A stretch of DNA of 64,000 bases. Source: a virus. The stretch lies in IMG/VR virus record IMGVR_UViG_3300031952_000013, positions 20,861-84,860 of that record. One strand, given 5' to 3'. The position numbers were made by a program, and so were the translations under genes. The notes beneath the pieces are model-generated. The model had not been told where the DNA came from. It ran no database searches and saw nothing but the letters and a program-made list of their open reading frames with translations. This document shows, one piece after another, positions 10,918-37,506 of this stretch (position 1 is its first letter; every line of letters starts with the position of its first letter).

Positions 10918-11562
10918 GTGGCAGAAAATCTAACTCAGGAGTCTCTTTATTTTTTCCTGTTTAACAAAGCTGTAGATATTACGGCTAGGTCAATGGATTA
11001 TCTCCCGCCCACAAGGATAAAGGAGACGGCTCACGACATCACGGTGGATTTTTTGTTCTTCAGTCAGAGCTATAGGCTGACTTACGATGTATCTAGGGAT
11101 ATAATGCCGTTTTTCTCTTCCTATGTGAGGAAAAAGTTGCGGAGAGCCTGGGAGGTCTTTAATGCAGAGTTGGTTGGGAGCGGCTCCAACTGGAATGGGT
11201 CGGTGGAGAGGGTCCGGGGTTGTTCTAGGGTTGAAACTTGGATTGAATTTAAGGATTGTGTTGAACGGATTAGGAGTTTGGTGAGGGGGAAGGTCTATGA
11301 TGGGGTTTCTGTGGAATCAGTTTTGAAGGCTGGTTTGTATCTCCATGCTGACGAAGGGGTGTTGTCGATTGAGACAGTGTGTAATTACCTGGGTACTTCT
11401 AAGGTAGAGGGGGTTAGAAGCGGTCTCAAATTGATTCAAAGGCTTCTGATTTATTGTCTAGGAGCGTGTGATGAACCGTATTTTTATACAGAAAGGCCCA
11501 AAAGGGTTGGTAGAAAAGGTAACTCAGCAAGCAAAGGAAACGGCAAAGAGTCGGGGGTCTAG
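10918..11562 (+). CDS. hypothetical protein, possibly a divergent sigma-like factor
   Basis: YDVSRDIMPFFSSYVRKKL resembles sigma region 2; possible C-terminal HTH. Confidence 0.5.
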   Translation: MAENLTQESLYFFLFNKAVDITARSMDYLPPTRIKETAHDITVDFLFFSQSYRLTYDVSRDIMPFFSSYVRKKLRRAWEVFNAELVGSGSNWNGSVERVRGCSRVETWIEFKDCVERIRSLVRGKVYDGVSVESVLKAGLYLHADEGVLSIETVCNYLGTSKVEGVRSGLKLIQRLLIYCLGACDEPYFYTERPKRVGRKGNSASKGNGKESGV

Positions 11563-12262
11563 GTTTTGCTTTGACGCGTCTGATTTTTCGTGTTGGTTAG
11601 GTGAATGGCGAGATAAACTCAAAAGTTACGTTGAGTTCTCCCATCCAGGGGATATCTTTGTGGTGAATGTTGCTGGATTTGGTGAGGAACACTTTGCTTT
11701 GTTGTTAAAGAGTCTTGAAAGCCTTACAGTGGGGGAGTTTTGGTTGTATGGGCGGCTTCTTGCATCATATCCGTTAACTGTTCGCAGTCGTTGTCAAGTG
11801 ACTTTAGACCAAGAAGAAGGGGAAGTGGATATGGTGGGACTCCAGTTGGTTCTTGATGAAGTGAAAGCCATGAAGAAGTTGGATTCGGCATCCAAAGATG
11901 TTCCTAGGGCCGAATTTTTTGTCCCCTACTTATATAATCTTGGTCATTATGACACGTCGATGGCTGTTGCGATGGTGCTTCTGAAGGCGTCCTTTGTAGA
12001 TTTTTTGTATATGTTGGATGTGTCGAATTTGTCTTCATTTTCGGCACTGATGAGTTTTGCTGAAAGACTTAAAGATGAGAACGCGGTACTCAATCTATAT
12101 GAGGAATGGCTCGCTGAAAATCCTATTTTTAGTGAGAAGGAATTGCGAATTTGTCCTGCGATTCACGACCCTAAAATCAAGGCGGATTTGGACAATAAAT
12201 TGGTGCTTGGTAAATTTTTTGTTCCGTATTTAATCTGCGCCAAAATGGTCAAGTCGAAATGA
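11468..12262 (+). CDS. holB: DNA polymerase III delta-prime-like clamp loader subunit
   Basis: ALLLKSLE ... PLTVRSRCQ (SRC motif), no intact Walker A. Confidence 0.65.
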   Translation: MMNRIFIQKGPKGLVEKVTQQAKETAKSRGSRFCFDASDFSCWLGEWRDKLKSYVEFSHPGDIFVVNVAGFGEEHFALLLKSLESLTVGEFWLYGRLLASYPLTVRSRCQVTLDQEEGEVDMVGLQLVLDEVKAMKKLDSASKDVPRAEFFVPYLYNLGHYDTSMAVAMVLLKASFVDFLYMLDVSNLSSFSALMSFAERLKDENAVLNLYEEWLAENPIFSEKELRICPAIHDPKIKADLDNKLVLGKFFVPYLICAKMVKSK

Positions 12263-13218
12263 CGTATAGAAGATTCCTCACCGATTTCGATGTACAGTTA
12301 CGCACTAAGTCTGTGTGGCTAATTGAAGGGGGGGAAGAAATAGTGCGAAGTGACGCTCTTTATATTCTGAAAAAGAAGTTTCAGCACCCACTGGCTAGAA
12401 TAAAGACGAAGTTGCCTTTGCAGTATCGGGAAGTGACCTATCACCTGTCGGATATAGTGAATTTGCCGACTGCTGTATCGACTGAATCGGCTTTTACCCT
12501 GACTGTAATACGATGGGAGAAGGGGTTATTGAACGAGAAGGAGACTAAACTGTTCCTTCGTGGGTGCAGGGATTCAAAATACTGGTTTGCAATTGTTGAT
12601 GCGACGGGAGAGGTTGGTAAAGTTTTTAAAGAAGTGTTTCCAAAACTCTCAAAGGGGGTTTCTGTTGACTGTAGGAAGATTTCAGAGGATGAGGAGTCAA
12701 AAAAGTCTCTGGTGTCTAGGAGGCTGGGGATTGTTGGCGCGAGTCCGAATGAGGATGTGATTAAATACCTTGCATCGGGTGATGAGATTTACGGAGGGTG
12801 GTTGTTTAACATTTTTTATATCCTAGAGGCTCTTAAAGAACCGAAGGTAGATGTTGATATGCTTAGGAAGCACAGTCTGATGGTTCCTAACATCGAATAT
12901 TATTTGATGAAAACACTTCTTGACAAAGGTAAGTTGGCTTTTTTGTCACTCCCGACGATTGATTATGACGATGGAAAGCTATTACGGTGTATTATAAGAG
13001 AGTTAATTTTAATACTGAATTGCAAGACGGTTCGTGGGAATAGCGACCAGAAGAAGTGCGGTATGGTTGGACTTCCCTATATGACGTTTTTGGCGTATAA
13101 AGACAAGTTAAAGAAAGTTGACTTGTTGCTTCTTTACCGTAGGTTGTATCTGACTTTCAAGACGCTTCGTTATGGAGGCCTCAAGGGGTCGGTGCTTTTA
13201 TTGTTGTCTATGTGGTAG
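12259..13218 (+). CDS. holA: DNA polymerase III delta-like clamp loader subunit
   Basis: N-terminal VWLIEGGEE, 319 aa, HolA-like C-terminal helical pattern (GLPYM..AY..KLKK..L..TLRYG); coupled to the holB-like gene. Confidence 0.6.
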   Translation: MTYRRFLTDFDVQLRTKSVWLIEGGEEIVRSDALYILKKKFQHPLARIKTKLPLQYREVTYHLSDIVNLPTAVSTESAFTLTVIRWEKGLLNEKETKLFLRGCRDSKYWFAIVDATGEVGKVFKEVFPKLSKGVSVDCRKISEDEESKKSLVSRRLGIVGASPNEDVIKYLASGDEIYGGWLFNIFYILEALKEPKVDVDMLRKHSLMVPNIEYYLMKTLLDKGKLAFLSLPTIDYDDGKLLRCIIRELILILNCKTVRGNSDQKKCGMVGLPYMTFLAYKDKLKKVDLLLLYRRLYLTFKTLRYGGLKGSVLLLLSMW

Positions 13219-13227
13219 GAGGTAAAT

Positions 13228-13488
13228 ATGATGGGTATGCATCCGGTAACTAAGAAATTACTGTGTGATTTGAACTGTCATGTCTGTGGAGGGTGGAAAA
13301 AACAGGGTTGTATTATGGTTGGAGGTATGGTCACTATGGCTTTTGCTTATTTCAGATGTGTCGCCGAAGGGATTACAGTGGATAAGGTTGGGCATCCTAT
13401 TGAGTTTTGGGCTGACAATCTTGAGTTGAGTAAGGATACCTGTCCTACTACTGACTATATTTTATACGACAGGGAGGTAATAAATTGA
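13228..13488 (+). CDS. hypothetical protein
   Basis: AGGAGG RBS. Confidence 0.55.
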   Translation: MMGMHPVTKKLLCDLNCHVCGGWKKQGCIMVGGMVTMAFAYFRCVAEGITVDKVGHPIEFWADNLELSKDTCPTTDYILYDREVIN

Positions 13489-13777: not shown

Positions 13778-13934
13778 CGGAACAGGTACATTTAGTATGA
13801 CTATGACAGACACCAACGGAGAAAACAAGGACATACACTTGGCTTGTCCTGCCTGTGGGGGGTCAGGCCAAGTTCCCAAGAGAAGTCAAGATAATCCGTT
13901 TCAGTCCAGGGTTGGAAAGTTGACATTGGATTAG
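13752..13934 (+). CDS. DnaJ-type CxxCxGxG Zn-finger protein
   Basis: CRFCDGTG ... CPACGGSG. Confidence 0.65.
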   Translation: MKEKCRFCDGTGTFSMTMTDTNGENKDIHLACPACGGSGQVPKRSQDNPFQSRVGKLTLD

Positions 13935-13960
13935 AATAGGTGAGAGGATAGAAACTCATC

Positions 13961-14167
13961 TTGGAGAGCGCGATGTCATCAACCAAAACGTATACTGATT
14001 CTTTGATAAAGACGGATTTTCATCATCTTCCTCTTTGCCTCCTTCCCAAATGGAGGGTGACAGGGGATGAGTTAAAACATTTTCTGGAGGAATTCCCTAA
14101 AACCGAGTATTCTGTGGAATTCCTGGTTAAGTTTTTAGAGGCTCATGGTTGTGAGGTAGACAGGTGA
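13961..14167 (+). CDS. hypothetical protein
   Basis: ORF. Confidence 0.45.
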   Translation: MESAMSSTKTYTDSLIKTDFHHLPLCLLPKWRVTGDELKHFLEEFPKTEYSVEFLVKFLEAHGCEVDR

Positions 14168-14288
14168 GCCGGAAAAAGTTAAATAGGAAGAAAAAAATAT
14201 TGAATAAAAAGAAACTGACAAGCCGTAGGGTAGGTAAGCAAATGGTATGGTGGAAACTAGATTCACTGCCTGAATCTTCACCTTATTT

Positions 14289-14546
14289 TTGGGTATGAAG
14301 ATGAGTCCTGATATTACTATGTGTCTAGAGAAGAAGTGTCCGATAAAGAGAAAATGCTATCGTCATATAGCAAAACCGGATAAGTGGCAGTCGTATTTTG
14401 TGGAAGTTCACTTTGAAAAGGGTCTTGGGAAGTCGGGAAAATGTGAATATTTTTGGGATGTTACGAAAGAAGGGGACCCGGTGCCGTACTGTACCGACTG
14501 CGGAGCGATAGAGCCGGAGGAAATTGAGGAGGAGGAAGATGAGTAA
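14289..14546 (+). CDS. Cys-rich hypothetical phage protein
   Basis: DITMC....CPIK..CYR ... QSYF ... CEYF. Confidence 0.65.
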   Translation: MGMKMSPDITMCLEKKCPIKRKCYRHIAKPDKWQSYFVEVHFEKGLGKSGKCEYFWDVTKEGDPVPYCTDCGAIEPEEIEEEEDE

Positions 14547-14760
14547 AATAATTGGAAGGTTACTTTGGTTTTTAAGTAAACATCATCTTTGGAAACGACC
14601 CACCGGTAGCATGGGGATAGGAGGAGAACCCACCTACGGATATGGGAAATTGTCTGATAATGGATATTGGCAATTTCCTGTGTATCCCCAAAAACGGGAG
14701 TCCCCCGATGACTGTCCCCGCAAACAAGGGGTGAAGGAGGAGAAAGATGAGCAAGCCTGA
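14524..14760 (+). CDS. hypothetical protein (cassette array)
   Basis: ORF with GGAGG RBS. Confidence 0.55.
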   Translation: MRRRKMSKIIGRLLWFLSKHHLWKRPTGSMGIGGEPTYGYGKLSDNGYWQFPVYPQKRESPDDCPRKQGVKEEKDEQA

Positions 14761-14962
14761 ATTTTGGTGGTGTGTGAAATCATTTGACAGATTGGTTCTC
14801 GAAAGTGTCCGTCGAACAAGAAAAATAGCCCTTGCAGACCGTATCGGAGAATGGAAAAAACAGGGGTACGCATGGACCACAAAAATCAAATTACCCGGCA
14901 ATGAGTCTATCGTCCGCATCCGCGTTGAGGAAGTGGGGAGGAAGAAAATTCCTAATGAGTAA
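14747..14962 (+). CDS. hypothetical protein, MSKPE start (cassette array)
   Basis: Starts with the repeated junction motif ATGAGCAAGCCTGA. Confidence 0.6.
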   Translation: MSKPEFWWCVKSFDRLVLESVRRTRKIALADRIGEWKKQGYAWTTKIKLPGNESIVRIRVEEVGRKKIPNE

Positions 14963-15113
14963 ACCATACAGTAATTCTAACTGGCATTGGTTTCTTTGGT
15001 TAATGGGTCAGTCCTTTAAATTCGCAAAGGTAGCATTTCAAATGCTTTTTAATGGTGGAGCGCGCGTGAAAGGAACCCGCCGATGACTGACCCGAGCAAG
15101 AGGGAGGAGGAGA

Positions 15114-15278
15114 ATGATGATTGAATTATCCTGCAATTGTGATGAATGTAAAAAGCGGTTGGGTGATGGAGATGCGGTTTATTGTGAAACCTGCGTAGCC
15201 GAACTTCGGCGGGAAATCGATGAACTGCAAAATGAGATTATCAAACTGAAAGAGGCCACTGATGAGCAGGCCGACTGA
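15114..15278 (+). CDS. Zn-finger plus coiled-coil protein (not in the ORF track)
   Basis: MMIELSCNCDEC...CETC...EIDELQNEIIKLKEATDEQAD; GGAGGAG RBS. Confidence 0.6.
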   Translation: MMIELSCNCDECKKRLGDGDAVYCETCVAELRREIDELQNEIIKLKEATDEQAD

Positions 15279-15522
15279 CCCGAGCGAGAAGGATTTGCTG
15301 GAATTCCTTGATGGGCATAAACCCATAGGGAAACAAAATCCCGACCATGTTTGCTTCGACGCCATCCGCCGCCTGATCGAGGAGCAGAGGGAGTTGGAAG
15401 AGAAAGTGAAAGAGTGGCAAAAAAGGGCGACAAGTATTATGGACGACCTGGACACGTCCGATTCGAGCGGCGTTCTTCTTAATGACATCCGCGACTTCGA
15501 CTTCGGGAAGGGGGGGAAATAA
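15262..15522 (+). CDS. cassette protein (IRRLIE / IRDFDFG family)
   Basis: Shares motifs with 16333..16659 and 16652..16939. Confidence 0.7.
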   Translation: MSRPTDPSEKDLLEFLDGHKPIGKQNPDHVCFDAIRRLIEEQRELEEKVKEWQKRATSIMDDLDTSDSSGVLLNDIRDFDFGKGGK

Positions 15523-15524
15523 AC

Positions 15525-15722
15525 ATGCCGATCTCAAGAGTAGAGTTTCTGGAAAATCAGAAGAATCTATGCAAGGAGAAGATCTATCCGTTTTTCATGC
15601 CCGGAAATGGGATTTGTTTCCGGTGCGGACGGGACATCATTCCAAGACTGATTGAAAAAGGCGAGAACGGGAAGTCGCTCGTGACCGGATGCCCGTTATG
15701 TATGTATTCATATTGCGAATAA
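15525..15722 (+). CDS. Cys-rich protein, paralog of 1693..1911
   Basis: Shared motifs throughout. Confidence 0.75.
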   Translation: MPISRVEFLENQKNLCKEKIYPFFMPGNGICFRCGRDIIPRLIEKGENGKSLVTGCPLCMYSYCE

Positions 15723-15748
15723 AAGAGGCCGCCGATGACCAAGCCTGA

Positions 15749-15958
15749 TTGCATCGGCAATGGGAGGGAAAGATGAAGGCCGTTTTATGTCCGGTTTGTT
15801 GTGGACGAGGAACGATTCCATCCCAACCCGTTGGGGTAAGTTTAACCGAAAATAAATGTCCTGGGTGTGGGGGTTTGGGATGGGTGACCGTTCCCGATGA
15901 TCTTTGGACTATGCCTTATCCAAAACAAAAGGAAAAAGATGATGATCCCAAAATATAA
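15749..15958 (+). CDS. CxxCxGxG Zn-finger protein
   Basis: CPVCCGRG ... CPGCGGLGWV. Confidence 0.65.
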   Translation: MHRQWEGKMKAVLCPVCCGRGTIPSQPVGVSLTENKCPGCGGLGWVTVPDDLWTMPYPKQKEKDDDPKI

Positions 15959-16118
15959 CCGCCTTTCCACCCTCGCCTGGGCCATCATCTTCCTCGCCGC
16001 GCTGTGGCTCTGCCTGGTTGCGATTCCGCAATTTACTGACAGGATTAGCCGCCATGAGGACACCTGGGCGAGGCAGACGGGGGATATTCCATCGGTGAAA
16101 TTAAGTGAGGAGGATTGA
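15897..16118 (+). CDS. small membrane protein
   Basis: Hydrophobic helix LAWAIIFLAALWLCLVAI. Confidence 0.45.
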   Translation: MIFGLCLIQNKRKKMMIPKYNRLSTLAWAIIFLAALWLCLVAIPQFTDRISRHEDTWARQTGDIPSVKLSEED

Positions 16119-16305
16119 GATGTGGTGCTGCAAATGTCAGAAGCAATTATCTGAGTGTACGTGTTCCGACCTACAAGAAAGACTCAGATCGGTTGCGGCA
16201 ATGGGTTCATTCGTATATCGCTACTGCCGGAAGTGCGGCAAGCATTATGTCAAGTGCAAATGTTCCGAGCCGATTTGGGCGATCAAGAAAAACGCCGATG
16301 GGTAA
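16105..16305 (+). CDS. Cys-rich protein
   Basis: Two CxxC...CxC units. Confidence 0.6.
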   Translation: MRRIEMWCCKCQKQLSECTCSDLQERLRSVAAMGSFVYRYCRKCGKHYVKCKCSEPIWAIKKNADG

Positions 16306-16332
16306 TAAGGTGAGCCATGAATGAGGCCGCCG

Positions 16333-16659
16333 ATGAGCAAGCCTGAAGTGACGAGGAAGGAAATGCTGGATGTACTTGAACGCATAGAAGATGAGACAAG
16401 GGACGAAATTCGGGTTATCAAAAAAGGGGAATGGGCAGAAACCCGGCTTCCGCTTATGGAAGAGAGAATAAGAGCCGTCGCAAGCCTCCGCCGCCTCATC
16501 AAGAATGGGCCGGAGGTGACGACCGAAGAAAGATTTGTCAGACATATCGAGAGTCACTTGTCAGGCAACCAAATTCCTGTCTGCAAAATATGTGGCAAAA
16601 CTATCTTGGAAATAGACGGTGAGGCCGGGGTGACGGTGAAGGAGACCGCCGATGAGTGA
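16333..16659 (+). CDS. cassette protein (MSKPE / LRRLI / GPEV / EAGV.VKE)
   Basis: Begins at the junction motif; shares motifs with its neighbours. Confidence 0.7.
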   Translation: MSKPEVTRKEMLDVLERIEDETRDEIRVIKKGEWAETRLPLMEERIRAVASLRRLIKNGPEVTTEERFVRHIESHLSGNQIPVCKICGKTILEIDGEAGVTVKETADE

Positions 16660-16939
16660 GCTGGGGGAGAAGAAAATGCTGAAGCCCATTGAGAAAGCGA
16701 TCCTATATCTCAACCATGTAAAAAATTGGTCAACACATGGACCAGCGGATATGAATGTAGGAGTTCTGGCAGTAGAATTAGGACGTTCATATGATACCAT
16801 CCGCCGCCTCGTTGAGAAGTAGGGGGAATGGCAAAAGAAAGCAGGCATGATTCTCTCTGTTCATAGAACCATGACTGAAGAAGAAACCGACGATTTACTT
16901 GAGAAAATCCGCGACTTCGACTTAGGCAAGGAAGGATAG
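16652..16939 (+). pseudogene. cassette gene interrupted by an in-frame TAG (16820-16822)
   Basis: Frame continues past the TAG as GEWQKKA...IRDFDLGKEG, matching the C-terminus of 15262..15522. Confidence 0.75.
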
Positions 16940-17155
16940 ATGAGCGCCAAGAACCGGCGGCGGGGGAAGGGACCGGAGGTGGATGAGGATTGGATAGAGA
17001 AGTGGCTGGACAAGAACGTTTCTTGTGACTGTCACGAAGCGTATAAATTGAGAAAGATGACTGACCCGAATTGCTTCCGGCACGGTCGAGTCGATGATGT
17101 CGATTGGAGGATAATGCTCCGCGAGGCCGGGATAAGGGTAAAGGAGAAGAAATGA
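16940..17155 (+). CDS. cassette protein (GPEV ... EAGIRVKE)
   Basis: Shares terminal motifs with 16333..16659. Confidence 0.6.
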   Translation: MSAKNRRRGKGPEVDEDWIEKWLDKNVSCDCHEAYKLRKMTDPNCFRHGRVDDVDWRIMLREAGIRVKEKK

Positions 17156-17786: not shown

Positions 17787-17794
17787 GAGGCAGT

Positions 17795-18527: not shown

Positions 18528-20717
18528 ATGAAGTTTGTATCCGTAACTACCAAAGAGCAGTTAAGTAGGTTGTGTCAACGTCTGTCTGATTTTAAAGGGA
18601 TTGTCGCTCTGGATATTGAAACCGAGTCAACTAATCCGTGGAGAGACGATATTGTGGGCATTGGACTCTGTTGGGGGGAGGCAGGAAGTGCATACATACC
18701 TATAAAACATAGGTATGACCAACCTTTTGAGTCACAATACGCTCTGAATATGCTCAAGAAGCCGCTTGAGGCGGTTGATTTGTGTTGTTTTAACGCCCCT
18801 TTTGACCTTGAGTTTCTTGATTTGAGAGGCGGAATAAGACCAAAATTGCCTGTAGATGTGGCTATTTTGGCTTATATAAACGCAAAATATGAGGCTTTAA
18901 ACCTTAAACATGTCTGTTCTATCGAACTTCCTGGGGTTAAAACAAGCTCTTTTAAGGATTTAATGCTTGAATATGACCTGAAACCATCTAAAAACTCGAT
19001 TTCGGAACTTCCTATCGGGGTTGTAACCGATTATTGCGGTCGGGATGCCCTAGCTACGTTCCTTTTATACCGAAAATTGTTCGATTCGGTCAAAAATCAC
19101 CCTATTTACCCTCTGGAAAGCCGACTTTTGCCTGTAACTATGTGGTTGAGGCGAAACGGGGTGCTTATTGACCGGAGTTTCTTTGAAGATGAGGAAAAGA
19201 CGCTTTTGGAGGAGTTGGGAGAGGTAAAAAGCATTATAGGAGCACAAATTTCAGATGCTTCGGGTCAAAAAGTCGATTTTAACATTGGTTCGTCAAAACA
19301 ACTGGGTCAAGTCCTTTATAAGACCTTAAAATTGAGGTGTGACGAGTATACGCCGACTGGACAACCCAGGACTGACAAGGAACAGCTTGCAAAGTACAAA
19401 TGGAAGCACCCCGTGGTCAAAAATATTGTTACTTTCAAGGAAATTCAGAAACTCCTCTCGACTTATTACTCAAACTACATGAAATACGTCGAGAAGGATG
19501 GTCGAATCCATGCAAGTTATAATCAAACAGGCGTACCCACAGGTCGGTATAGTTGTTCTGACCCTAATTTGCAGAACATTCCTGATAAGAATGCGTGGGA
19601 AATTGAGACCCCGGCAGGTAAAAAAGCGGTTTGTGCCGGTATGCGAAATGGTTTCATAGTGCCTGAAGACTGTTGGTTTGTCGAATTTGATTATAGTCAG
19701 ATAGAAGCGAGACTAGCAGCAGGGGTGACACAGGAGCCGATTCTGCTAAATGCTTTTTCTGAGGGGATTGATTACCACACAAAGACCGCATCTTTGGTGT
19801 TCAGCATCCCTGTGGATAGCGTGACGAAAGAACAGAGGAGGATGGCCAAGAGATTGAACTTTGCTTTGTCCTATGGGATGGGAACAAACAAGTTGTGGCG
19901 GGTGCTTAATGAGGATATTCCTATTTCGTACAAGGATTCGGCGGGGTTCAGAGACACTTATGTGAAGTCTTATCCTACAATGTTTCACATGGCTGAGGTT
20001 ATCGGAAAGAACGCCGAGAGAACGAGGTATGTTGATACAATCTTCGGTAGGCGTATTCCTGTGTTTGAATTCCTTAAAGGGGATGAAAAGTCGTTGCAAG
20101 ACGGGAGGCGCATGGCTTATAATGGGGTAATCCAAGGTAGTGCCGCAGATATTTTAAAAAGAGGTCTGATTAAGACTTGGAATTTGATAAACCGCAAATA
20201 TGGGATGGATAACGTCAAATTGACCATGACGATACACGATTCGATGGAATTTGAGGTCAAAAAAGACATTCCGATGGTTGAGTTCGTTAAAGATGTGATT
20301 GCAGAGACGAGATTGTGCTTGAAAGGATTTCCTGTGATGTTTGTAGAACCCTCTGTTGGAAATGTCTGGGGCGGGTTGCAATCTCCTCAAAAAGAGGAGG
20401 ATTTTAACATGTTTTTCGCCCGATTGTCAGGAAAAACGACAGTTGACCTGTCGGTTAAGCCTGTGGTTGTGAATGGCTCAAATGGACGAATTTTTGTGGT
20501 TGAATTGCCGGAATTTACCAAAGATGGTAGTTTCCGTACTATGACCCAGGTTGTAACTCTGAGGAATTACCTTGTGGGGCATCCTGGGAAGAATAAAGTG
20601 GTCTTGAAGATAGGTTCCCGTGAAGAGACACTTCCCTTTGACACGGCGATTAATCTAGAAGACAAAGACAGGATTGCTTTGATGATAGGAGCGCGTTTCT
20701 ATGAGAGGGTAGGATGA
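18528..20717 (+). CDS. polA: family A DNA polymerase with 3'-5' exonuclease and C-terminal extension
   Basis: ExoI ALDIET, ExoII FNAPFD, ExoIII YCGRDA; TGRYS..PNLQNIP; motif A DYSQIEAR, B RRMAKRLNFALSYG, C TIHDS. Confidence 0.95.
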   Translation: MKFVSVTTKEQLSRLCQRLSDFKGIVALDIETESTNPWRDDIVGIGLCWGEAGSAYIPIKHRYDQPFESQYALNMLKKPLEAVDLCCFNAPFDLEFLDLRGGIRPKLPVDVAILAYINAKYEALNLKHVCSIELPGVKTSSFKDLMLEYDLKPSKNSISELPIGVVTDYCGRDALATFLLYRKLFDSVKNHPIYPLESRLLPVTMWLRRNGVLIDRSFFEDEEKTLLEELGEVKSIIGAQISDASGQKVDFNIGSSKQLGQVLYKTLKLRCDEYTPTGQPRTDKEQLAKYKWKHPVVKNIVTFKEIQKLLSTYYSNYMKYVEKDGRIHASYNQTGVPTGRYSCSDPNLQNIPDKNAWEIETPAGKKAVCAGMRNGFIVPEDCWFVEFDYSQIEARLAAGVTQEPILLNAFSEGIDYHTKTASLVFSIPVDSVTKEQRRMAKRLNFALSYGMGTNKLWRVLNEDIPISYKDSAGFRDTYVKSYPTMFHMAEVIGKNAERTRYVDTIFGRRIPVFEFLKGDEKSLQDGRRMAYNGVIQGSAADILKRGLIKTWNLINRKYGMDNVKLTMTIHDSMEFEVKKDIPMVEFVKDVIAETRLCLKGFPVMFVEPSVGNVWGGLQSPQKEEDFNMFFARLSGKTTVDLSVKPVVVNGSNGRIFVVELPEFTKDGSFRTMTQVVTLRNYLVGHPGKNKVVLKIGSREETLPFDTAINLEDKDRIALMIGARFYERVG

Positions 20718-27185: not shown

Positions 27186-27917
27186 ATGCATGATAAAAAA
27201 GAATGGAATCCTGAGCATTTTGATGTCAATTATTATGAGAGGAGTGAGAAAACTCCTTATGGTGGTTTCCAGGTTCCGTATACATGGGAAAACTTTAAGA
27301 ATCATGCTTACGCCAAAATCGCCTTTATTAGGAAGTATTTTGGTGGATTTGACATAAAGACAATCTTGTTCGGAGGTTGTGCTAAGGGATTTGAAGTGAG
27401 GGCAGCTAAAGAACTAGGTTACGACGCTTATGGGATTGATATATCAGAGTATGCTCTGGTTCATGCAGACCCGTCGGTGCTGTCTCAATGCACTCTTGGG
27501 TCTATTACTGATTTATCTAAGTTTTATAAGGATGATTCGTTTGATTTATTTGCTTCATTTGATGCGTGGCATACGATTCATCCTGATGAAAGGGAACAGG
27601 CAGCTAAAGAGATAAGTCGAATCACCAAGAAAGGTATTCTAATACGGACGGGGTTTTGTTCTGGTAAACAAGTTGGATTTATTTCATACGATGGTGACGT
27701 TGAATATATAGACCCTGAATTTAACGGTACGTATGACGGTAATCCGTCTTATCAGGATTCGATTGGTCTGTTCTTCAGACGGTTTGAAGAATTGGGTAAG
27801 TTTGCAGGTTTCTTTTCCCCTGTAGTCTGGGATAGGGATTACTTCATTTGGTACAGTCTGTGTCGTTCTGGTAATGACATGTTACGCAAGAATTATGGGG
27901 CAGGTGGTGGAGTTTGA
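27186..27917 (+). CDS. class I SAM-dependent methyltransferase
   Basis: ILFGGCAKG, YGIDIS, GSITDL..DDSFDL motifs. Confidence 0.85.
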   Translation: MHDKKEWNPEHFDVNYYERSEKTPYGGFQVPYTWENFKNHAYAKIAFIRKYFGGFDIKTILFGGCAKGFEVRAAKELGYDAYGIDISEYALVHADPSVLSQCTLGSITDLSKFYKDDSFDLFASFDAWHTIHPDEREQAAKEISRITKKGILIRTGFCSGKQVGFISYDGDVEYIDPEFNGTYDGNPSYQDSIGLFFRRFEELGKFAGFFSPVVWDRDYFIWYSLCRSGNDMLRKNYGAGGGV

Positions 27918-28858
27918 TTAAGACCATTGTAGTTAAGGGTTATCAGAGCCTCTATGACATCTCTCTGGAGATGGGGAAGTTCACAGTAATTTATGGTGAG
28001 TCAGATGTCGGCAAAAGTAGTTTATACCGGGCGATCAGGGGTCTGCTGACGACTGAAAGCGGGGATGCATTCATTTCTAGGGGGGAGAAAGGTGCTTTTG
28101 TCTCTCTGACGCTAGATTCAGGGGAGAAGGTTACTTGGGTTAAGAGGCGGGGTCAGAGCAGTGAATATACTCTGGGTAATCAAATTTACAGGCGGTCCAA
28201 GCAAATTCCAGACGAGATTGCGAAGGTGTTGAGGATTGCACCGATTGTTGTGGATGGTGACAAATTTTATCCCAATCTCAGGGGTCAGTTTGATAGTCTA
28301 TTTCTGTTGTTTGATTCATCGTTGAAGAGGGCAAGGGTTCTGGGTTCTTTGATTTCCAATATTCTGTTAACTGGTATCCGTCAAGTTAACTTAGAGAGGA
28401 ATCGGAACGAAGCCGATATTAGGGCAGCAGGAGATTTGAAGCAATCTTTAGAGGATAGAGTGAGTCAGAACTGGGATGGTCTACTTAGAGAGACGGATAC
28501 TTTAAAACAGACTTTGGTTGTGGCTAGAAAGATTCTTGACCGGATTGAAGAGATTAGAGTTGTAGTAGAGGAAATGGAGACGCTCAAACCCTATGAGTCT
28601 TTGATTTATGCTCTTTTGAACGAGAAAGATTTAGTGAACTTGGTTGAATTACTTGACAGGTATAGCGAGATTGCTGAGGTAGTTGCGGAAGTTTCTGGTG
28701 AAAAGAGTTCACTTGAGAGGAATGAATTTTTGATGGGAAAGGTAGAAAAGGACAGGGATGGGGCTAAGATTCTGTTGGATGATATGAAAGAAAAACTGAC
28801 AATTACCTGTCCGAATTGTAAGCGCCCGATTTCGTTGGTGGAGATGGGAATTGACTGA
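27914..28858 (+). CDS. SbcC/Rad50-like ATPase, N-terminal half
   Basis: KGYQSL, Walker A GESDVGKS, Q-loop GQFD, coiled coil ending in Zn-hook CPNC; lacks signature and Walker B. Confidence 0.85.
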   Translation: MIKTIVVKGYQSLYDISLEMGKFTVIYGESDVGKSSLYRAIRGLLTTESGDAFISRGEKGAFVSLTLDSGEKVTWVKRRGQSSEYTLGNQIYRRSKQIPDEIAKVLRIAPIVVDGDKFYPNLRGQFDSLFLLFDSSLKRARVLGSLISNILLTGIRQVNLERNRNEADIRAAGDLKQSLEDRVSQNWDGLLRETDTLKQTLVVARKILDRIEEIRVVVEEMETLKPYESLIYALLNEKDLVNLVELLDRYSEIAEVVAEVSGEKSSLERNEFLMGKVEKDRDGAKILLDDMKEKLTITCPNCKRPISLVEMGID

Positions 28859-29792
28859 GATATTGTTCTGGTCGGACCCCCATAATTCTGATACTCCCCC
28901 CCGTATGCGTAAGGATTCTTATTGTGAGGATATTCTTGCGAAGCAGGAGAAGATTGCCGAGTTGTCTAAGGGATATGATTTAGTTATTTGTGGTGGGGAC
29001 GTTTTTCACCAGAAAAGGGCTGACAGGATATCGTATCGTTTGGTGAACAGGTTGTGTGAGATTTATCGAGAGATGGGTAATCTGATTATCGTTCCTGGTA
29101 ATCATGATGTTGAGACAAGGTGGGATTTCAAAGTGCGCCCTTTGGGAATTCTGTCTCATCTTCCAAATGTAAGGTTGAGCCACGCGGAGTCTATTGAATT
29201 TGATGATTTTGTTATGCTGACGTATGGGGGGGCAGAATTCTTCCCTGAGGTAGAGTTTTTGAGTTGGTTAGAGGGTGAGTCTAGGTTGATTACTGTTAGA
29301 GATAAGAGACACAGGGTAGGGGTGTTTCATCAGGGTATTGGAAATACGGCATGGAATTTGCCTTTTCCTATGATTGATGCAAGGAAAGTTGAAAACTGGG
29401 TGGATTTTGGACTTATCGGTCATATTCACAGCCATGTAGGGTATGTTAGCGCAGGAAAGTTGTACTGTGCGGGGGCAATCAGCCGTGGTTCACTGACCGG
29501 TGATGAGGTGGATAGGCCGGTTTGTTATATGCATGTGGAGATTGGGAAAGACCAAATTTCCTGTGGTTTGCAGGAATTACCTATTAAAATGGGGGAGGAA
29601 GTTTTCAAGATTTCCGAGCGGATGGCTGAAAAAAAGACAGAGGCGGGGGTCAATCAATTTCTGTCTTACATAGAATCGTTTGACCTGCCCAAATCTATGA
29701 GTGCAGAGGAGATTATTTCCTATATCGAGTCCAATACAGAGATTGACAAGAAGGTTGCTCATAAGGCTGTGAGTGTCCTGAGGGGTTTGTGA
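28851..29792 (+). CDS. SbcD/Mre11-like metallophosphoesterase nuclease
   Basis: SDPH, GGDVFH, PGNHD, FHQ, GHIH. Confidence 0.9.
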   Translation: MTEILFWSDPHNSDTPPRMRKDSYCEDILAKQEKIAELSKGYDLVICGGDVFHQKRADRISYRLVNRLCEIYREMGNLIIVPGNHDVETRWDFKVRPLGILSHLPNVRLSHAESIEFDDFVMLTYGGAEFFPEVEFLSWLEGESRLITVRDKRHRVGVFHQGIGNTAWNLPFPMIDARKVENWVDFGLIGHIHSHVGYVSAGKLYCAGAISRGSLTGDEVDRPVCYMHVEIGKDQISCGLQELPIKMGEEVFKISERMAEKKTEAGVNQFLSYIESFDLPKSMSAEEIISYIESNTEIDKKVAHKAVSVLRGL

Positions 29793-30604
29793 TGAAGTTA
29801 TTTGAAACGACGCTTTCTTATACGTTTCTCTCAACCTACCAGAAGTGCCATCGTCGGGCTTGGTTGCAGTACGTTAAGAAGGTTGTTCCGCCTGAGAAGG
29901 TCAATCAGAGGCCGTTTATCGTGGGAATTTGCGCAGACTGGTTGTTTAAGAAGTGGGTTGCTGGTGGCTACCACTCCGATTGGATGGAGCAAGAAGCCAG
30001 GGGAATCTTTGAATGGTTTTCTACAAAAAGAGTGATTCGTTACCTAGATGGTTCAGATAAAGAGAAACTCATCCTCAAGTTGACTATGGCGGTGAAAGAC
30101 CTACAACAGGCTGCTTTAGACGAGAAGTTTCCTGATAGGGTGCTTAATCTTCAGAAAGAACTTAGGGTAGACTATAATCAATTTGTTATGTCAGGTAAGT
30201 TAGACATCTGGTTTCCTGAGGAGAAAGCTATCTGCGATTTGAAGATAACATCGTCTATGAAGTACCTGGATAGTTTTCAACTGAGGTATTTTGCGTGGCT
30301 GATGGAGCGTAAACACACTATTTTTGTTGAGAAACTCACGTTTCTCTCTCCTATGATGAGGCCGTATCTCAAGGAGGTTTCTTGGTTGCCTAATGATAAG
30401 ACAGAGTTTGACCTTCTGTTGTTTGACGTTCTGGGGCGGATTGCGTCGAATGATTGGTCTATAACAACTAAGGATTGCTGGAGTTGCCCTGTGGCATCCT
30501 TCTGCGAAGAGTTTACTGTGGAGGCTGAGAGAACGAAATCAGCTTCTGGTGGATTTAAGATAAAAATAGGAGTAGAAGATGGAGGTATCGAAGAAGAGTT
30601 ATAA
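29789..30604 (+). CDS. PD-(D/E)xK nuclease (RecB/Cas4-like)
   Basis: LSYT...YQKC, GKLD...ICDLK, QLRYF, C-terminal CWSCP...C. Confidence 0.85.
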   Translation: MMKLFETTLSYTFLSTYQKCHRRAWLQYVKKVVPPEKVNQRPFIVGICADWLFKKWVAGGYHSDWMEQEARGIFEWFSTKRVIRYLDGSDKEKLILKLTMAVKDLQQAALDEKFPDRVLNLQKELRVDYNQFVMSGKLDIWFPEEKAICDLKITSSMKYLDSFQLRYFAWLMERKHTIFVEKLTFLSPMMRPYLKEVSWLPNDKTEFDLLLFDVLGRIASNDWSITTKDCWSCPVASFCEEFTVEAERTKSASGGFKIKIGVEDGGIEEEL

Positions 30605-30872: not shown

Positions 30873-31964
30873 ATGAAGTTTATTATTCGCAGACCGTTTT
30901 TGTTGGCGTTATTGGAGAAAGCCTGGACTGTGACTATCGGGGGTACTCTTTCTACAACTAAGGGTTTTTACTTTGTCCAGAAAGACGATACCCTGACGGT
31001 TGCTCGTACTGACAGTATCTTGAGTGCGGTGGCTTCTACTAATGTGGTTAATTGGGTGAATAAAGAAGCTCCCAACGAATTCCTTGTGGATGCCGAAAAG
31101 TTCCTCCGGCTGATTAGAGGTCTTGCTTGCGATGAGGTTTCTCTTTCAGTTGAGGATAATGAAATTGCGATTTCTGGAGACAACTTCAATGCAGAGTGGC
31201 TCCTGTTCGATTTAAAAGACTTTCCGAAATTGCCTGTGTATCACAGGGAGATGAGCCTAGAAGTGCCTACAATCGAGTTTGTGGGGGCAGTAGACAGGAT
31301 TCGCTACGCTGCGTCGATTGAATCCCTGACTTCTGCTTATAAACAGATTTACTTTGAGAACGGGGCATGTTGGGCGACTGATGGTTATAACTACCAGGCT
31401 GTTGAAACTAAAATTACACTCCCAAATCAAGTTGCTCTGCCTCTTATCGGATTGGATGTTGTAAAGTTTTTGCGTCTCTCAGGTGTCAGTTCGTTCTTTT
31501 TGTCGTGGGATGATGACCACTACTATTTTATGATAGGGAATGACGCTTTTGTATGTCGGCGATCTCCGGTTCAACCTCCTAATCCTTTATTGGATTTCTA
31601 CGGTAAGTTGAGTATGGAGTATCATAAACTTCCCTATTTCACTTTTGAAGTCAGATTGCTTCGCCGGATTGTTGAGAGAGTGGCTATTACCGGTAGTTTT
31701 TCTAACAAACGAATCTGGTTTCATGTGACTCCTACAACTTTGACTATCAATGGGGTCGATGAGGACGGGAATTCCAGTTCAGAGGTGCTTATTATCACTT
31801 TAAATGGAGATAAGACAGATAGAACGCTTGGGATTCACTACGAAATGCTACTGTCTGCGTTAGCTTCTGTGAGGAAGGAATCAGCCAATTTTAGATTCAA
31901 CAAGAATCATTTTCTTATTACGTCGGAGGATAGTACAGCTATTCTCCCCTTGTTGAAAAAATGA
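30873..31964 (+). CDS. dnaN: DNA polymerase III beta sliding clamp
   Basis: 363 aa three-domain size; ARTD, DFPKLP, ATDGY, C-terminal AILPL. Confidence 0.88.
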   Translation: MKFIIRRPFLLALLEKAWTVTIGGTLSTTKGFYFVQKDDTLTVARTDSILSAVASTNVVNWVNKEAPNEFLVDAEKFLRLIRGLACDEVSLSVEDNEIAISGDNFNAEWLLFDLKDFPKLPVYHREMSLEVPTIEFVGAVDRIRYAASIESLTSAYKQIYFENGACWATDGYNYQAVETKITLPNQVALPLIGLDVVKFLRLSGVSSFFLSWDDDHYYFMIGNDAFVCRRSPVQPPNPLLDFYGKLSMEYHKLPYFTFEVRLLRRIVERVAITGSFSNKRIWFHVTPTTLTINGVDEDGNSSSEVLIITLNGDKTDRTLGIHYEMLLSALASVRKESANFRFNKNHFLITSEDSTAILPLLKK

Positions 31965-32751: not shown

Positions 32752-33264
32752 ATGAGCGAAGTGAGCCTGACGGGAAACGCTAAACTTATTAGGCTTTCTA
32801 CTAAACCGTTTAAAATTTTGGCTTTAGATTTAGGGACTCATTGTGGATGGGCAGTATCAACTCCTTGTTCTGTGGTTGAAAGTGGGGTGCAGATGTTTGA
32901 TTTGCGGAGGGGAGAAAGTCCTGGGATGCGGTTTATCAGATTTAATAAATGGTTATCTGAGATGTTGATTAATGTGTTTCCAGATATGGTTGTTTATGAG
33001 ACGATGTTTGCTTGTCGTGGTCCTGCTCTTGAAGTTTTATTGGGTATGTATACTAGGATACAGGAACAATGTGCTATGAAGAGTATTCCTTACGCTGGTA
33101 TGAACGCGATGACACTGAAGAAGCGGGCTGCGGGAAGTGGTAAAGCATCTAAAGACATGATGATGAAGGCGGCTTCCGAATTTATAGGCCATCTAATTTT
33201 AGATGATAATGAAGCAGACGCAATTATGCTTTTAAAAATTGCTATGGAAGACTATGCTACATGA
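32752..33264 (+). CDS. RuvC-like Holliday junction resolvase
   Basis: ILALDLG..GWA, VVYE, LKK.A.GSGKASK, DNEADAI. Confidence 0.88.
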   Translation: MSEVSLTGNAKLIRLSTKPFKILALDLGTHCGWAVSTPCSVVESGVQMFDLRRGESPGMRFIRFNKWLSEMLINVFPDMVVYETMFACRGPALEVLLGMYTRIQEQCAMKSIPYAGMNAMTLKKRAAGSGKASKDMMMKAASEFIGHLILDDNEADAIMLLKIAMEDYAT

Positions 33265-33829
33265 AGAATGGTATTCAATTTATCAGAAGGCGGTGTGGGG
33301 CTGTGAAGCCTGTTCCGCTAGGCATGAGTGTACCCGACCGGTTCCTGGTGAGGGAGATTTAAATTCGTCTTTTTTGGTTGTTGGTAGGAACCCAGGTAAG
33401 AACGAAGATATTCTAGGGCAGCCCTTTGTTGGACCTGCTGGTGAGGTGCTGGATAAGTTTTTGGAATTGTGTGGCGTGTCACGGAGTAAAGGTTGTTTCA
33501 TCACAAATATGTGCTTATGTCATACCAGAGAGGATAGGTTTTTATCTAAGGAAGAGGTGAAGACCTGTGTTAAGGGATTTTTAATACCGACTTTGGTTCA
33601 GTTGAAGCCGAAGGTCGTTATGGTATGTGGGACGCAGCCAAATTATTTTATAAACGGTATCAAGAAACCGTCTCATCATCATGGTGAACTGTTTGAGCAT
33701 AGGTCAGGATTCCACACTATCTGTAGTCTTCATCCGGCAGCAGTTTGTTACAATCCCGACTTGTGGGTTAGATTTGAGGTTCTGGCTCCGGTTGTCAAGA
33801 GGTTACTAGATGATAATACGGTCTCCTGA
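33254..33829 (+). CDS. family 4-like uracil-DNA glycosylase ([4Fe-4S])
   Basis: CEAC, VPGEG, VGRNPG..ED..G.PFVGPAG, ITN..LC, LHPAA. Confidence 0.88.
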   Translation: MLHEEWYSIYQKAVWGCEACSARHECTRPVPGEGDLNSSFLVVGRNPGKNEDILGQPFVGPAGEVLDKFLELCGVSRSKGCFITNMCLCHTREDRFLSKEEVKTCVKGFLIPTLVQLKPKVVMVCGTQPNYFINGIKKPSHHHGELFEHRSGFHTICSLHPAAVCYNPDLWVRFEVLAPVVKRLLDDNTVS

Positions 33830-36347
33830 GGAAGTTGAAGATTTTTTAACCCGACACAAGTTTGATTTTGGCGATTTGCCGCACGTATATTTAGGCCAAG
33901 AAGACGGGAGTTTTCATAAGGATTGGGGTTTAGCCAAATATAAGATTCTTTTCTCGATGCTATGGCGGTATCAGGATAGTCGTGGGAATCAAACTGTTCC
34001 ACTTCTCTATCAGATTATAAATGAGTGGCGACCAGGAGAAGTTCTGATGGAGAGGGCCAATGTACCTGAGACAGAGGAACACTATAAACTTTTCCGTAAA
34101 TATCAGATTCCTCTGTTCGGTGTGGAATCAAAGCACAGTGCAGGGGGCTACGATATGATAATGACCTCCCTTAGTTATGTTCCGGTCTGGTGGAATTTCC
34201 CCCTAATGTTGAAACTTAGTGGGATTCCAGTTCTTCAGAAAGATCGTTCTGATGAAGGGCAGTATCCTTTAATCATGGTTGGTGGTTCGTCTGTCTATGG
34301 TAACTTTGGGTTGGTGTTTCCTGTAGTTGACATAATCTATTTTGGTGACGCTGAAGATGAAGAAGATGGAGGGGTTTTGCATTTATTGGATTACATTATG
34401 GAGTTGAGGGGCCATGGGTTACAAAATTCGGAGGTTCTAGATGCTATTCAACCTAACTTCCCTTATATCATGTGCCCCAGGTTCTACACTCCTCACTATG
34501 AGAAAGAAAAGTTTACAGGATGGACATCGGCTCCGTCCAAGTTTCCCAAGAAGTTTGTCGTTAGGAAATGCAAAAATCTGGATGCGGTTCCTAAGTACAC
34601 GAAGCCAATTCTCTCCTATACTGATAATACGATGGGTCTGGGTGAAGTGGAGATTTCCAGGGGTTGTCGTGGGATGTGTGCCTTTTGTGGTATCGGATGG
34701 AAGTACCGTCCATATCGGGAACGGTCTGTGGAAGTTATGGTTGAAGCTCTGACTACGAATAAGCGAAACTCTGGGGCGGTTTCGTTATGTCCTATCGCAA
34801 CGGAATTTGCGTACTACTCACACAAACGCAAGTTAATTAACGAACTTGCCAAGCACAGCCGGTATGTTGACCCTCTTTCCATGAGGATAGATGCTTTTGC
34901 AAGCGACGAAGAATTTGATATTTTCCTGAGGAAATTGTGTATGAATCAAGTGGCTCTGGGAGTGGAAGGAGTTTCTCAAAGACTTAGGAATAGAATGATG
35001 AAGGGAATTTCTGAGGAGGAGATTCTGAAGGCTTGTAAGATTGCGATTGAGGCTGGTTTTGACAGGGCCAAGTTTTTTATGATTGCAAATACGGACGAGA
35101 CTTGGGAAGATTTTGAGGAGTTCTTTTCTCTCTTAAAGAAGGTTGTGGATATGAAGAACAGAGCTAGGTCTCGATTAAAGATTAGGGCTTCGTGGACTCC
35201 GCTTTTTGTGGAGGCTTGCACCCCGCTACAATGGAAGAGTCCTACGATTCTACAAGACAATATTGATTGGAAACAGGTATACAACAGGTTGAAAGAACTC
35301 GGTATTGAGATGAAGTACGGGGTGAAACGCAATTATAAATTTATGCGGGTTTCTCAGGCTATGCATATTGGAGATACTCGGTTTGCTGAAGCAGTTGCTC
35401 TGGCAGCAGAGGAATCTGATAGGCCATTCTATTCGGGGTTTGATGATAAGTGCATCCCTAGACTTGAAAAATATATGGAGCAGACTGGTTATTCTTGGGA
35501 TTATATGCTCAGAGAGAAGACCGAAGATGAGGAGTTTATATGGGATGTTGTTGACAGGGGGGTCAAGAAAGAGACTTTATTGAAGTTGTGGAAGAAGATT
35601 AAATCAGGGGAGATGGATATGAAGAAAGTCAAGATTGTTCCTACAATGGATAATTGTGAACTGACAAAGACTCTCTATAACGAACAGGAAGCATTCTTTT
35701 GGGCTGTAGTGAAGTACAGGGTTTCTAAAGGATTGGATACGGTTCCCAATGCTTACTGGACGGCACACATAAGCAGGGCTGGTTTGAGGAGCGGGGTCCC
35801 CCTGGCAGTGAATAAGATTCACTTCTTTAGTAATCACGATAATGGAAACTGGTATGGAGGATTTGATTATATCGGTATTGGTTTAAGAAGCACACCATCC
35901 CCTGATAGTTGGTCTAAATTTTGTTCTGAGTTACAGCCGTTGGAGTATCAGAATGTATTGTGGTTACTAAATATGAAACCTACGTGGAGCGATCTGGTTA
36001 GTTCCTACCGGGTTGAGACTGACATTTCTCCTGCGGAGTGGGCAAAGTACAGAATCAAATTTGATGAAGCTGATAAGGTTACTGTGCGGAATAAAGAAAC
36101 AAGATATTTTTCTGGTGCGTGGAGGCAGTTGGTTGATTTGAAAGAAATCAAGTATATTGATGTTCAGGTTTCTGCCGATGTTGCTCCTACGATTATTCTG
36201 AATATCTATATGAGCCATGAGGTAGGGATTAGGTTTGCCCTAGTTGGTCTCCTTCCTGGGGTTTCATCTCGTCGGATAAAGAAGTTTCTGGTTGAGAAAA
36301 CGGGTTTACACAGGGTAAAAGATTGGGCGGTGCAGGAGAGTTTCTGA
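33810..36347 (+). CDS. TIGR03960-like radical SAM protein fused to a DUF2344-like domain
   Basis: EISRGCRGMCAFC (CxxxCxxC); N-terminal PLFGVES..LSGIP..GG..GDAE; GVEGVSQRLR; C-terminal ISRAGLRSGVPLA resembles TIGR03936/DUF2344. Confidence 0.85.
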   Translation: MIIRSPEEVEDFLTRHKFDFGDLPHVYLGQEDGSFHKDWGLAKYKILFSMLWRYQDSRGNQTVPLLYQIINEWRPGEVLMERANVPETEEHYKLFRKYQIPLFGVESKHSAGGYDMIMTSLSYVPVWWNFPLMLKLSGIPVLQKDRSDEGQYPLIMVGGSSVYGNFGLVFPVVDIIYFGDAEDEEDGGVLHLLDYIMELRGHGLQNSEVLDAIQPNFPYIMCPRFYTPHYEKEKFTGWTSAPSKFPKKFVVRKCKNLDAVPKYTKPILSYTDNTMGLGEVEISRGCRGMCAFCGIGWKYRPYRERSVEVMVEALTTNKRNSGAVSLCPIATEFAYYSHKRKLINELAKHSRYVDPLSMRIDAFASDEEFDIFLRKLCMNQVALGVEGVSQRLRNRMMKGISEEEILKACKIAIEAGFDRAKFFMIANTDETWEDFEEFFSLLKKVVDMKNRARSRLKIRASWTPLFVEACTPLQWKSPTILQDNIDWKQVYNRLKELGIEMKYGVKRNYKFMRVSQAMHIGDTRFAEAVALAAEESDRPFYSGFDDKCIPRLEKYMEQTGYSWDYMLREKTEDEEFIWDVVDRGVKKETLLKLWKKIKSGEMDMKKVKIVPTMDNCELTKTLYNEQEAFFWAVVKYRVSKGLDTVPNAYWTAHISRAGLRSGVPLAVNKIHFFSNHDNGNWYGGFDYIGIGLRSTPSPDSWSKFCSELQPLEYQNVLWLLNMKPTWSDLVSSYRVETDISPAEWAKYRIKFDEADKVTVRNKETRYFSGAWRQLVDLKEIKYIDVQVSADVAPTIILNIYMSHEVGIRFALVGLLPGVSSRRIKKFLVEKTGLHRVKDWAVQESF

Positions 36348-36372
36348 TGACTAAAGTTGAAGGAAGGTTGGA

Positions 36373-37506
36373 TTGAGTCAGTGGAATATTTCTTGGCGGC
36401 CTCGTGGATTTGGCGGTGTAGTTGGGCAAGAGCATGTGGTTCTATTCTTTCAAAAAGTTCTGGCTAACTGGTTTGATAAAGGAGAAACTCTGCCTATTGG
36501 AGTTTTGTTTGGGGGGCCGAGTGGAGTCGGAAAAACGACAATTGCTAGGATAATAGGGGCATCTTTAAACTGTGATTGTCGAGTGGGGGTGGAACCGTGT
36601 GGGATGTGTAAATCGTGTAAGGATATTATAACAGGTACGGGAGGGATTTTAGAAATAGACGCAGCCTTTTTTGGTTTAGTTGATAATATTCGACAATTAA
36701 GGCAGCGATTAAGTTCATATGCTTTTAGTTCTTACCAGGTTGTTTTAATTGATGAGTGCCATGTTATGTCCCGCGAGGCATTTAATGTCTTACTCAAGTT
36801 GCTTGAGGAGCCATTGGACAGGGTATTCTTTATTCTGGTGACTACAGCGACAGATAAGGTTATAGAGACTGTAAGAAGTAGGTTGATTGAATTCCGCTTC
36901 AAGTCGCTAAAATGGGATGTGGTATTTCCTTACATTTCTAAACTCCTCCAGGCTGAAGGGATTTTGTGTGAGTCGGAGGACATTGTAAAAAAACTTTACA
37001 TGATAGCTGACCACAATTTTAGGGAGTTGCTGATGATGTTGGAGCAAGCTGCGGTTGTGGGTAATGGTAATATCTCGTCGGATGTTCTTCGGGGGCTTTA
37101 TGGGAATCTGATGGTCTTTGATTCTATCATTGATTCTCTGGTGGAAGGGGATTTTGTTGGAGCGATTTCGTATTACGATGAGTATAGGTCAATGCAGCCG
37201 GATTTTTCTATCTTCTTGTCGGGATTTTTAGATGTACTGACGGATAGGTTGAAGGTTGGTTTGAGGTCTGGTGATTCACGTTCTCCAATATATTTAGCAA
37301 TAATTAAGAGTGTGTATGAACTTTTAGGGATGCGTTTGACGACTAAAGGGGGTGTACAGGCCAAGTTGCTTTTTGCGAATGTGGTCCAACTGGTTAAAGG
37401 AGCAGAGGCTGGTCGTACTGGAACAGGGAAGTCATTAAATGAAGAAGATGTATTTAACTTACTGACTGGTAAAGGGAAGTCGGTAGGTGCTGAGTCGAAA
37501 CACTAA
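36373..37506 (+). CDS. dnaX: DNA polymerase III gamma/tau clamp-loader ATPase
   Basis: WRP..F..VVGQEH, GPSGVGKTT, Zn module PCGMCKSC, IDECH, FNVLLKLLEEP, TVRSR. Confidence 0.93.
   Translation: MSQWNISWRPRGFGGVVGQEHVVLFFQKVLANWFDKGETLPIGVLFGGPSGVGKTTIARIIGASLNCDCRVGVEPCGMCKSCKDIITGTGGILEIDAAFFGLVDNIRQLRQRLSSYAFSSYQVVLIDECHVMSREAFNVLLKLLEEPLDRVFFILVTTATDKVIETVRSRLIEFRFKSLKWDVVFPYISKLLQAEGILCESEDIVKKLYMIADHNFRELLMMLEQAAVVGNGNISSDVLRGLYGNLMVFDSIIDSLVEGDFVGAISYYDEYRSMQPDFSIFLSGFLDVLTDRLKVGLRSGDSRSPIYLAIIKSVYELLGMRLTTKGGVQAKLLFANVVQLVKGAEAGRTGTGKSLNEEDVFNLLTGKGKSVGAESKH

Follow-up and report, generated by a model that had tools for sequence, protein, structure and literature searches.

The virus record IMGVR_UViG_3300031952_000013 of IMG/VR is the 84,860-bp (84.9 kb) genome of an uncultured phage, and its completeness was rated 100% by CheckV. 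We analysed a stretch of 64,000 nucleotides, bases 20861–84860 of the record, which is referred to below as the window; coordinates are those of the window unless the genome is named. The subject of the analysis is the set of replisome genes found there, which encode a family A DNA polymerase (PolA), a beta sliding clamp (DnaN), the clamp-loader motor ATPase DnaX, and two proteins resembling the delta (HolA) and delta' (HolB) clamp-loader subunits of DNA polymerase III (Pol III). All long open reading frames (ORFs) of the window, these five genes included, lie on the plus strand, and the G+C content is about 0.44. A sequence-only reading of the window had placed a HolB-like gene with an SRC motif at 11468, a HolA-like gene at 12259, DnaN at 30873, DnaX at 36373, and a family A polymerase, the only polymerase seen, at 18528. 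Each of the five genes was found at its position, and the evidence for each is given below.

PolA (18528–20717, plus strand, 729 aa) comprises a 3'-5' exonuclease domain (PF01612, E-value 5.3e-15, residues 4–185), a polymerase domain (PF00476, 2.7e-89, residues 226–581), and a C-terminal extension. The Pol I equivalog model NF004397 matched with an E-value of 5.1e-111; since the alignment begins only at model position 302, the protein has no 5' nuclease domain. Replicative PolAs of phages, unlike repair Pol I, are built in this way, with an exonuclease and without a 5' nuclease. The best matches among GenBank phages were at most 32% identical. PolA is the sole DNA polymerase of the complete genome, so that what had been read from the window holds for all 84,860 bp. 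No match to PF07733 (DnaE/PolC), to the family B polymerase model PF00136, or to the PHP domain PF02811 (positive in 14 of 14 control genomes) was obtained anywhere in the genome, and with a record rated complete, the possibility of a dnaE or polC gene outside the window, which had been raised together with the sequence-only reading, was answered in the negative. A 1470-aa protein encoded at the genome start had no match in Pfam or the PDB and only matched phrog_8917 (function unknown); we treated it as a structural protein, not as a polymerase.

The gene following PolA (20714–21721, plus strand) starts 4 nt inside the PolA stop and encodes a GT4-type glycosyltransferase (PF20706, 'GT4 in conflict systems', 8.7e-8), which may serve in the glycosylation of DNA or of the surface. 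On the other side, between the loader genes and PolA, the region 13800–17100 contains only short ORFs (less than about 135 aa) on both strands.

DnaN (30873–31964, plus strand, 363 aa) matched the full-length three-domain clamp profile TIGR00663 from end to end (9.4e-16, residues 1–352 on positions 1–353 of 367), as well as PF00712 (7.5e-8, 33.0 bits with a cut-off of 24.4) and phrog_947, 'DNA polymerase processivity factor' (2.7e-23). The clamp is divergent, because its TIGR00663 score of 57.7 bits lies under the cut-off of 137.65. Searches with tblastn among 50,697 GenBank phage records gave no match to DnaN and none to the delta-like protein described below; the proteins of this phage stand far from those of any cultured one. 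Just upstream of DnaN, at 27914–30604 on the plus strand, are genes for an SbcC-like ATPase, an SbcD-like phosphoesterase, and a Cas4/RecB-type nuclease.

DnaX (36373–37506, plus strand, 377 aa) is of gamma length. It was recognized by TIGR02397 (4.8e-64, residues 7–295 on positions 7–293 of 355; 216.8 bits, below the cut-off of 250), by PF13177 (5.4e-27, 95.2 bits with a cut-off of 27), and by phrog_5846 (5.5e-46), and it is 28–42% identical to DnaX from many bacterial phyla. Like bacterial DnaX, it spans domains I–III and has a Walker A motif (GPSGVGKT at residue 48), a Walker B motif, a cluster of Cys residues resembling the Zn module, and an SR[CL] motif, here SRL at residue 169. In tau, domains IV–V bind DnaB and Pol III alpha. 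To judge by its sequence, the phage DnaX lacks these tau-specific domains; PF12170 (tau), which responds in just 3 of 14 control genomes, had no match in this one. The C-terminal tail of the protein carries a second P-loop-like string, GRTGTGKS (residues 347–354, positions 37411–37434), followed by an acidic/hydrophobic peptide, and is possibly a docking tail.

The delta-like protein (12259–13218, plus strand, 319 aa), whose start overlaps the stop of the delta'-like gene by 4 nt, was recognized by fold only. As a single sequence it had no match in Pfam, PHROG, or NCBIfam, and the PDB search returned only noise. A word-indexed search yielded 5 relatives, and an exhaustive profile search among 1.84 billion representatives yielded 33 homologues; none of the 35 aligned members matched Pfam, PF06144 and PF21694 included, at E<=0.01. 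The AF2 model built with 6 sequences was unusable (pLDDT 49.7), and the one built with 35 sequences reached a pLDDT of 91.6 and a pTM of 0.71. Foldseek placed Bacillus subtilis delta (3zh9) first for this model (E 2.3e-7), followed by Escherichia coli delta chains, and VIA-align gave Z 15.1 to 1jr3_D (303 residues aligned) and 14.7 to 3zh9. The top seven PDB matches of VIA-align were all delta (Z 15.1–13.2), with gamma/tau at Z 11–13 and RFC at about 10–11. Domain I alone aligned with 1jql_B, residues 1–140 of delta in the delta–beta complex, with Z 12.4 and an rmsd of 2.8 Å over 124 residues, and the ESM Atlas gave TM 0.61–0.67 to PF06144 clusters. No Walker A motif was present in any of the 6 close relatives. 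All six have an aromatic residue at position 79, directly ahead of strand 81–86, which may correspond to L73/F74 of E. coli delta, the hydrophobic plug of domain I that opens the beta clamp. The modelled fold, with three domains, no P-loop, and greater proximity to delta than to gamma or RFC, identifies the product of 12259–13218 as a delta-like clamp-loader subunit, a member of a delta family that comprises 33 representative clusters and escapes Pfam. Scans of IMG/VR with the delta alignment, PolA, or P0017 found no close relatives, and a scan of JGI metagenomes found one 8-kb contig.

The delta'-like protein (11468–12262, plus strand, 264 aa) is a compact AAA+-like module. Its gene overlaps the end of the upstream ORF, and an AGGAG lies ahead of the GTG/ATG start (ATG at 11471). 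The arginine-finger motif SRC (residue 107, in the context TVRSRCQ) is present in 6 of 6 relatives, and the Walker A pattern G-x4-GK[ST] in 0 of 6. The protein had no Pfam (PF13177 included) or PHROG match, its single-sequence PDB search gave noise, and the NCBIfam delta' model stayed below threshold (E 0.12, 11.3 bits, residues 78–111). A profile of six homologues matched E. coli gamma/tau in the PDB with E-values of 8.8e-6 to 4e-5, from the second AAA+ core strand through a Walker-B-like segment, LLKSLE, and TVRSRC. The phage's own DnaX was matched in hhalign with E 6.2e-5 (prob 65%), and Atlas features gave 0.91 to viral PF13177 clusters. Delta' is an ATPase-dead stator that supplies an arginine finger. 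We read the phage protein as a compact, presumably ATPase-dead stator of this kind, filling the delta' role.

The delta' and delta genes co-occur on the contigs of relatives. The pair and the block upstream of it are conserved in a relative at 35–53% identity, and in the 49%-identical relative L002 the order of a sigma-like gene, homologues of the ORFs at 10320–10868 and 10918–11562, delta', and delta is kept.

Outside the window, the upstream 20 kb of the genome encode an SNF2 helicase, a DnaB-like helicase (1.4e-22), and a DnaG zinc ribbon (4.9e-14). Terminase, portal, and tail genes lie downstream of the replication region. We consider it probable that the phage is self-sufficient in replication, with a set of bacterial style whose Pol III alpha is replaced by a family A polymerase capable of proofreading. 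A replicase centred on PolA is the most economical reading, because the gene content is right and the complete genome has no DnaE or PolC. DnaB and DnaG would unwind and prime the DNA. A minimal loader, built of three gamma-length DnaX motors together with a single delta-like 'wrench' and a delta'-like 'stator', itself ATPase-dead but providing the last arginine finger, would place the phage's own beta clamp on the primed sites. PolA, the only polymerase at hand, would then draw its processivity from this clamp, and its C-terminal tail could be a link to the clamp or the loader. The stoichiometry of the loader, the role of PolA as a clamp client, and the mode of contact are what we infer from these identifications. 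Several results weigh against this picture. Regular expressions found neither a canonical clamp-binding motif (QxxLF or Q-type) nor a thumb-tip motif in PolA. The delta-like profile reached E. coli delta in the PDB only marginally (E 0.1), and the delta'-like profile matched delta' in the PDB with E 0.049, its best matches being gamma/tau rather than delta'.

The candidate for a physical link is the C-terminal extension of PolA (residues 620–729, 110 aa; 20385–20714, plus strand), which consists of a linker and a domain of about 80 aa. The linker contains the peptide DFNMFF (residues 625–630), which we regard as a clamp-motif candidate only. The domain is weakly similar, with a core at residues 677–712, to the tau-binding C-terminal domain of Pol III alpha. 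In alpha, the last approximately 80 residues (1079–1160 in E. coli) form the tau-binding domain (Fernandez-Leiro et al., 2015; PMC4703070). The comparison was made with the DnaE genes of bacteria: 40 genes were collected, and a tail hidden Markov model (HMM) built from 18 of them recognized the tail in 38 of the 40 DnaE ORFs. An HMM of these 38 C-terminal domains put the PolA tail at the top twice: in the set of 617 six-frame segments from the phage, with E 0.0048 as against 0.37 for the runner-up, and in a set of 2767 segments, with E 0.021 and the following two at 10.4 and 9.8 bits. Its score of 15.2 bits was reached by none of 5000 shuffles, the maximum of which was 7.6 bits. The position is also alike, an approximately 80-aa domain at the very C-terminus of a replicative polymerase, and so is the sequence pattern, L..L...L..HPG and then alternating hydrophobic strands. 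Unlike the tail of alpha, that of PolA sits on an unrelated polymerase family and is not preceded by an OB domain. This tail is missing from the PolAs of phage MS1, which stops at the normal C-terminus, and of Nodularia phage 2AV2.

Other results speak against the kinship of the two tails. Two decoys scored only about 2 bits below the PolA tail with the DnaE-tail HMM, and hhalign aligned the PolA tail with the DnaE tail over 35 columns at a probability of only 36%. PF20914, which scores above its cut-off in just one of 14 control genomes, gave no match to the PolA tail at E<=10. No other Pfam model matched, nor did phmmer find a match in the PDB. The reciprocal phmmer search was not significant, with DnaE tails aligned at the right place in three of its first rows. 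The evidence for an alpha-type tau-binding graft on PolA is suggestive only, and we hold the chances for and against it to be about even. A limited search of the literature found no report of a tau-binding-type tail on a phage PolA. If the tail is an alpha-type docking domain, a docking module would have moved between unrelated polymerase families.

Taken further, PolA would have acquired the loader-holding domain of Pol III alpha, so that the loader, the beta clamp, and an unrelated polymerase would be wired as a chimeric holoenzyme. Docking would occur on the short tail of the gamma-length DnaX or on host tau, and the delta/delta' lineage would be so diverged that only structure reveals its family. 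As a joint claim, we put this forward tentatively, with somewhat more doubt than confidence.

Two other clients of the clamp have to be weighed against a PolA-centred replicase; the two do not rule each other out. The phage clamp and loader might serve the host Pol III (DnaE/PolC) for bulk copying, PolA being left with gap filling, Okazaki maturation, or repair. This would agree with the textbook role of beta and the DnaX complex, which normally serve family C polymerases, and with the negative result of the motif search in PolA; an alpha-like PolA tail could equally well dock on host tau. However, PolA has no 5' nuclease with which to remove primers, the phage carries its own helicase and primase, and its DnaX is without the part of tau that binds alpha. 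Moreover, host alpha need not recognize a clamp that lies so far below the TIGR00663 cut-off. We consider service to host Pol III unlikely.

Rather than polymerase processivity, the main role of the clamp could also be that of a mobile platform, either in late transcription, in the manner of T4 gp45 with gp55/gp33, or for the phage's recombination and repair enzymes. The gene neighbourhood is what points this way. A sigma-70-like factor with regions 2 and 4 (9554–10123, plus strand; PF04542 3.8e-6, PF04545 8.9e-6), itself outside the loader, heads the conserved block that the delta' and delta genes close, and DnaN stands among SbcCD-like, Cas4-like, RuvC-like, UDG, and RecA genes. By analogy with T4, the sigma-like genes upstream of delta' and delta could link clamp loading to late transcription. 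The T4 clamp serves both processes, however, so that the platform and processivity roles are compatible, and the platform reading draws on neighbourhood only. A role of the beta clamp in the late transcription of phage Mu has been published (PMC12867686). As the main function of the clamp in this phage, a platform role seems improbable to us.

It is very unlikely that the delta- and delta'-like proteins, though AAA+-derived, do something other than load the clamp, with DnaX alone or DnaX plus host delta/delta' as the loader: neither matches PF06144 or PF13177 at threshold, and recruitment of host subunits has been raised for phages Ma-LMM01 and RSL1 (PMC3201878), but the delta fold match is full-length and ahead of gamma and RFC by about 2 Z, SRC is invariant in the delta'-like protein, and the two genes overlap and travel together.

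In the same conserved block, the ORF at 10918–11562 (plus strand) is the second one conserved upstream of delta' and delta and, judged by eye, may be sigma-like as well. Further upstream, a 382-aa ORF (7773–8921, plus strand) had no Pfam, PHROG, or PDB-type match; it carries a clamp-binding-like pentapeptide, QFLIF, at residue 4 and is absent from the same spot in L002.

Other phages are known to carry the same combination of genes, and the present genome is a very divergent new example of it. It belongs to the gene-content class with PolA, polIII-beta, and polIII-gamma and without a family B or C polymerase. Kazlauskas and Venclovas (2011; PMC3201878) described this combination for two phages, Ma-LMM01 of Microcystis and RSL1 of Ralstonia, in which beta was suggested to be the processivity factor of PolA. 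E. coli Pol I is stimulated by beta. In their account of these two phages the rest of the loader was left open, with recruitment of host subunits as a possibility, and the general picture is repeated in their 2016 survey (PMC4889955). The genomes of Ma-LMM01 and RSL1 exceed 150 kb and one loader subunit was found in 2011, whereas here a genome of 85 kb encodes both a delta-like and a delta'-like protein. Gene content alone is therefore not new. The sequence-only reading had inferred a PolA-based replicase inside a self-encoded Pol III-like set, an architecture that it regarded as unfamiliar from the classic model phages. The gene content behind the first part was confirmed, delta and delta' included, and a PolA-based replicase is its most economical reading, but the architecture proved to be familiar beyond the classic model phages, from Ma-LMM01 and RSL1 as well as from MS1, which has PolA, DnaN, DnaX, and delta' and no DnaE.

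DnaX-like genes were found in 289 GenBank phage records. The annotation of Streptococcus phage MS1 (KY629621, 56 kb), a cultured pneumophage, names DnaN, DnaX, and delta' alongside another, third loader-like gene, and MS1 also has RecA, a RecB/Cas4-type nuclease, a resolvase, and a sigma factor; our profile check detected its PolA (4.1e-64) and no PF07733. Like the present phage, in which a Cas4/RecB-type nuclease gene lies just upstream of DnaN, MS1 has a RecB-type nuclease beside this gene, directly following it. The gene order differs between the two phages, and the MS1 delta' is recognizable by Pfam, according to its annotation, while the delta' here is not. MS1 gp16 showed no similarity to the delta-like family (hhalign prob 0.07%), and no PF06144 was found in MS1. 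For Dp-1, a relative of MS1, orf18 is listed as HolB (PMC4840434). In Nodularia phage 2AV2, PolA lies approximately 1.5 kb from DnaX.

Compared with E. coli and B. subtilis, the phage set follows the same five-part logic of gamma3-delta-delta' plus beta2. It differs in the lack of tau domains IV–V and of Pol III alpha and epsilon, and its delta' is about 70 residues shorter than that of E. coli (264 vs. 334 aa). Which subunits complete the loader of such phages had been left undecided in 2011, and this genome supplies candidates for delta and delta'. PolA, beta, the gamma-only DnaX, delta, delta', DnaB, and DnaG make up a compact and complete parts list for reconstitution; no reconstituted phage replicase of PolA and beta clamp was found in the literature consulted.

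Within the replication operon, at 33239–36347 on the plus strand, a UDG-family gene overlaps the start of a gene for an 845-aa radical SAM protein (PF19864 and PF04055). Another radical SAM gene precedes the window, at 5376–6908 of the genome; the two are possibly involved in DNA modification or peptide maturation. The whole window contains one tRNA gene, for His (297–368). The GC skew was very strong and uniform across the window (1–64000), from +0.14 to +0.42 as calculated in 4-kb windows.

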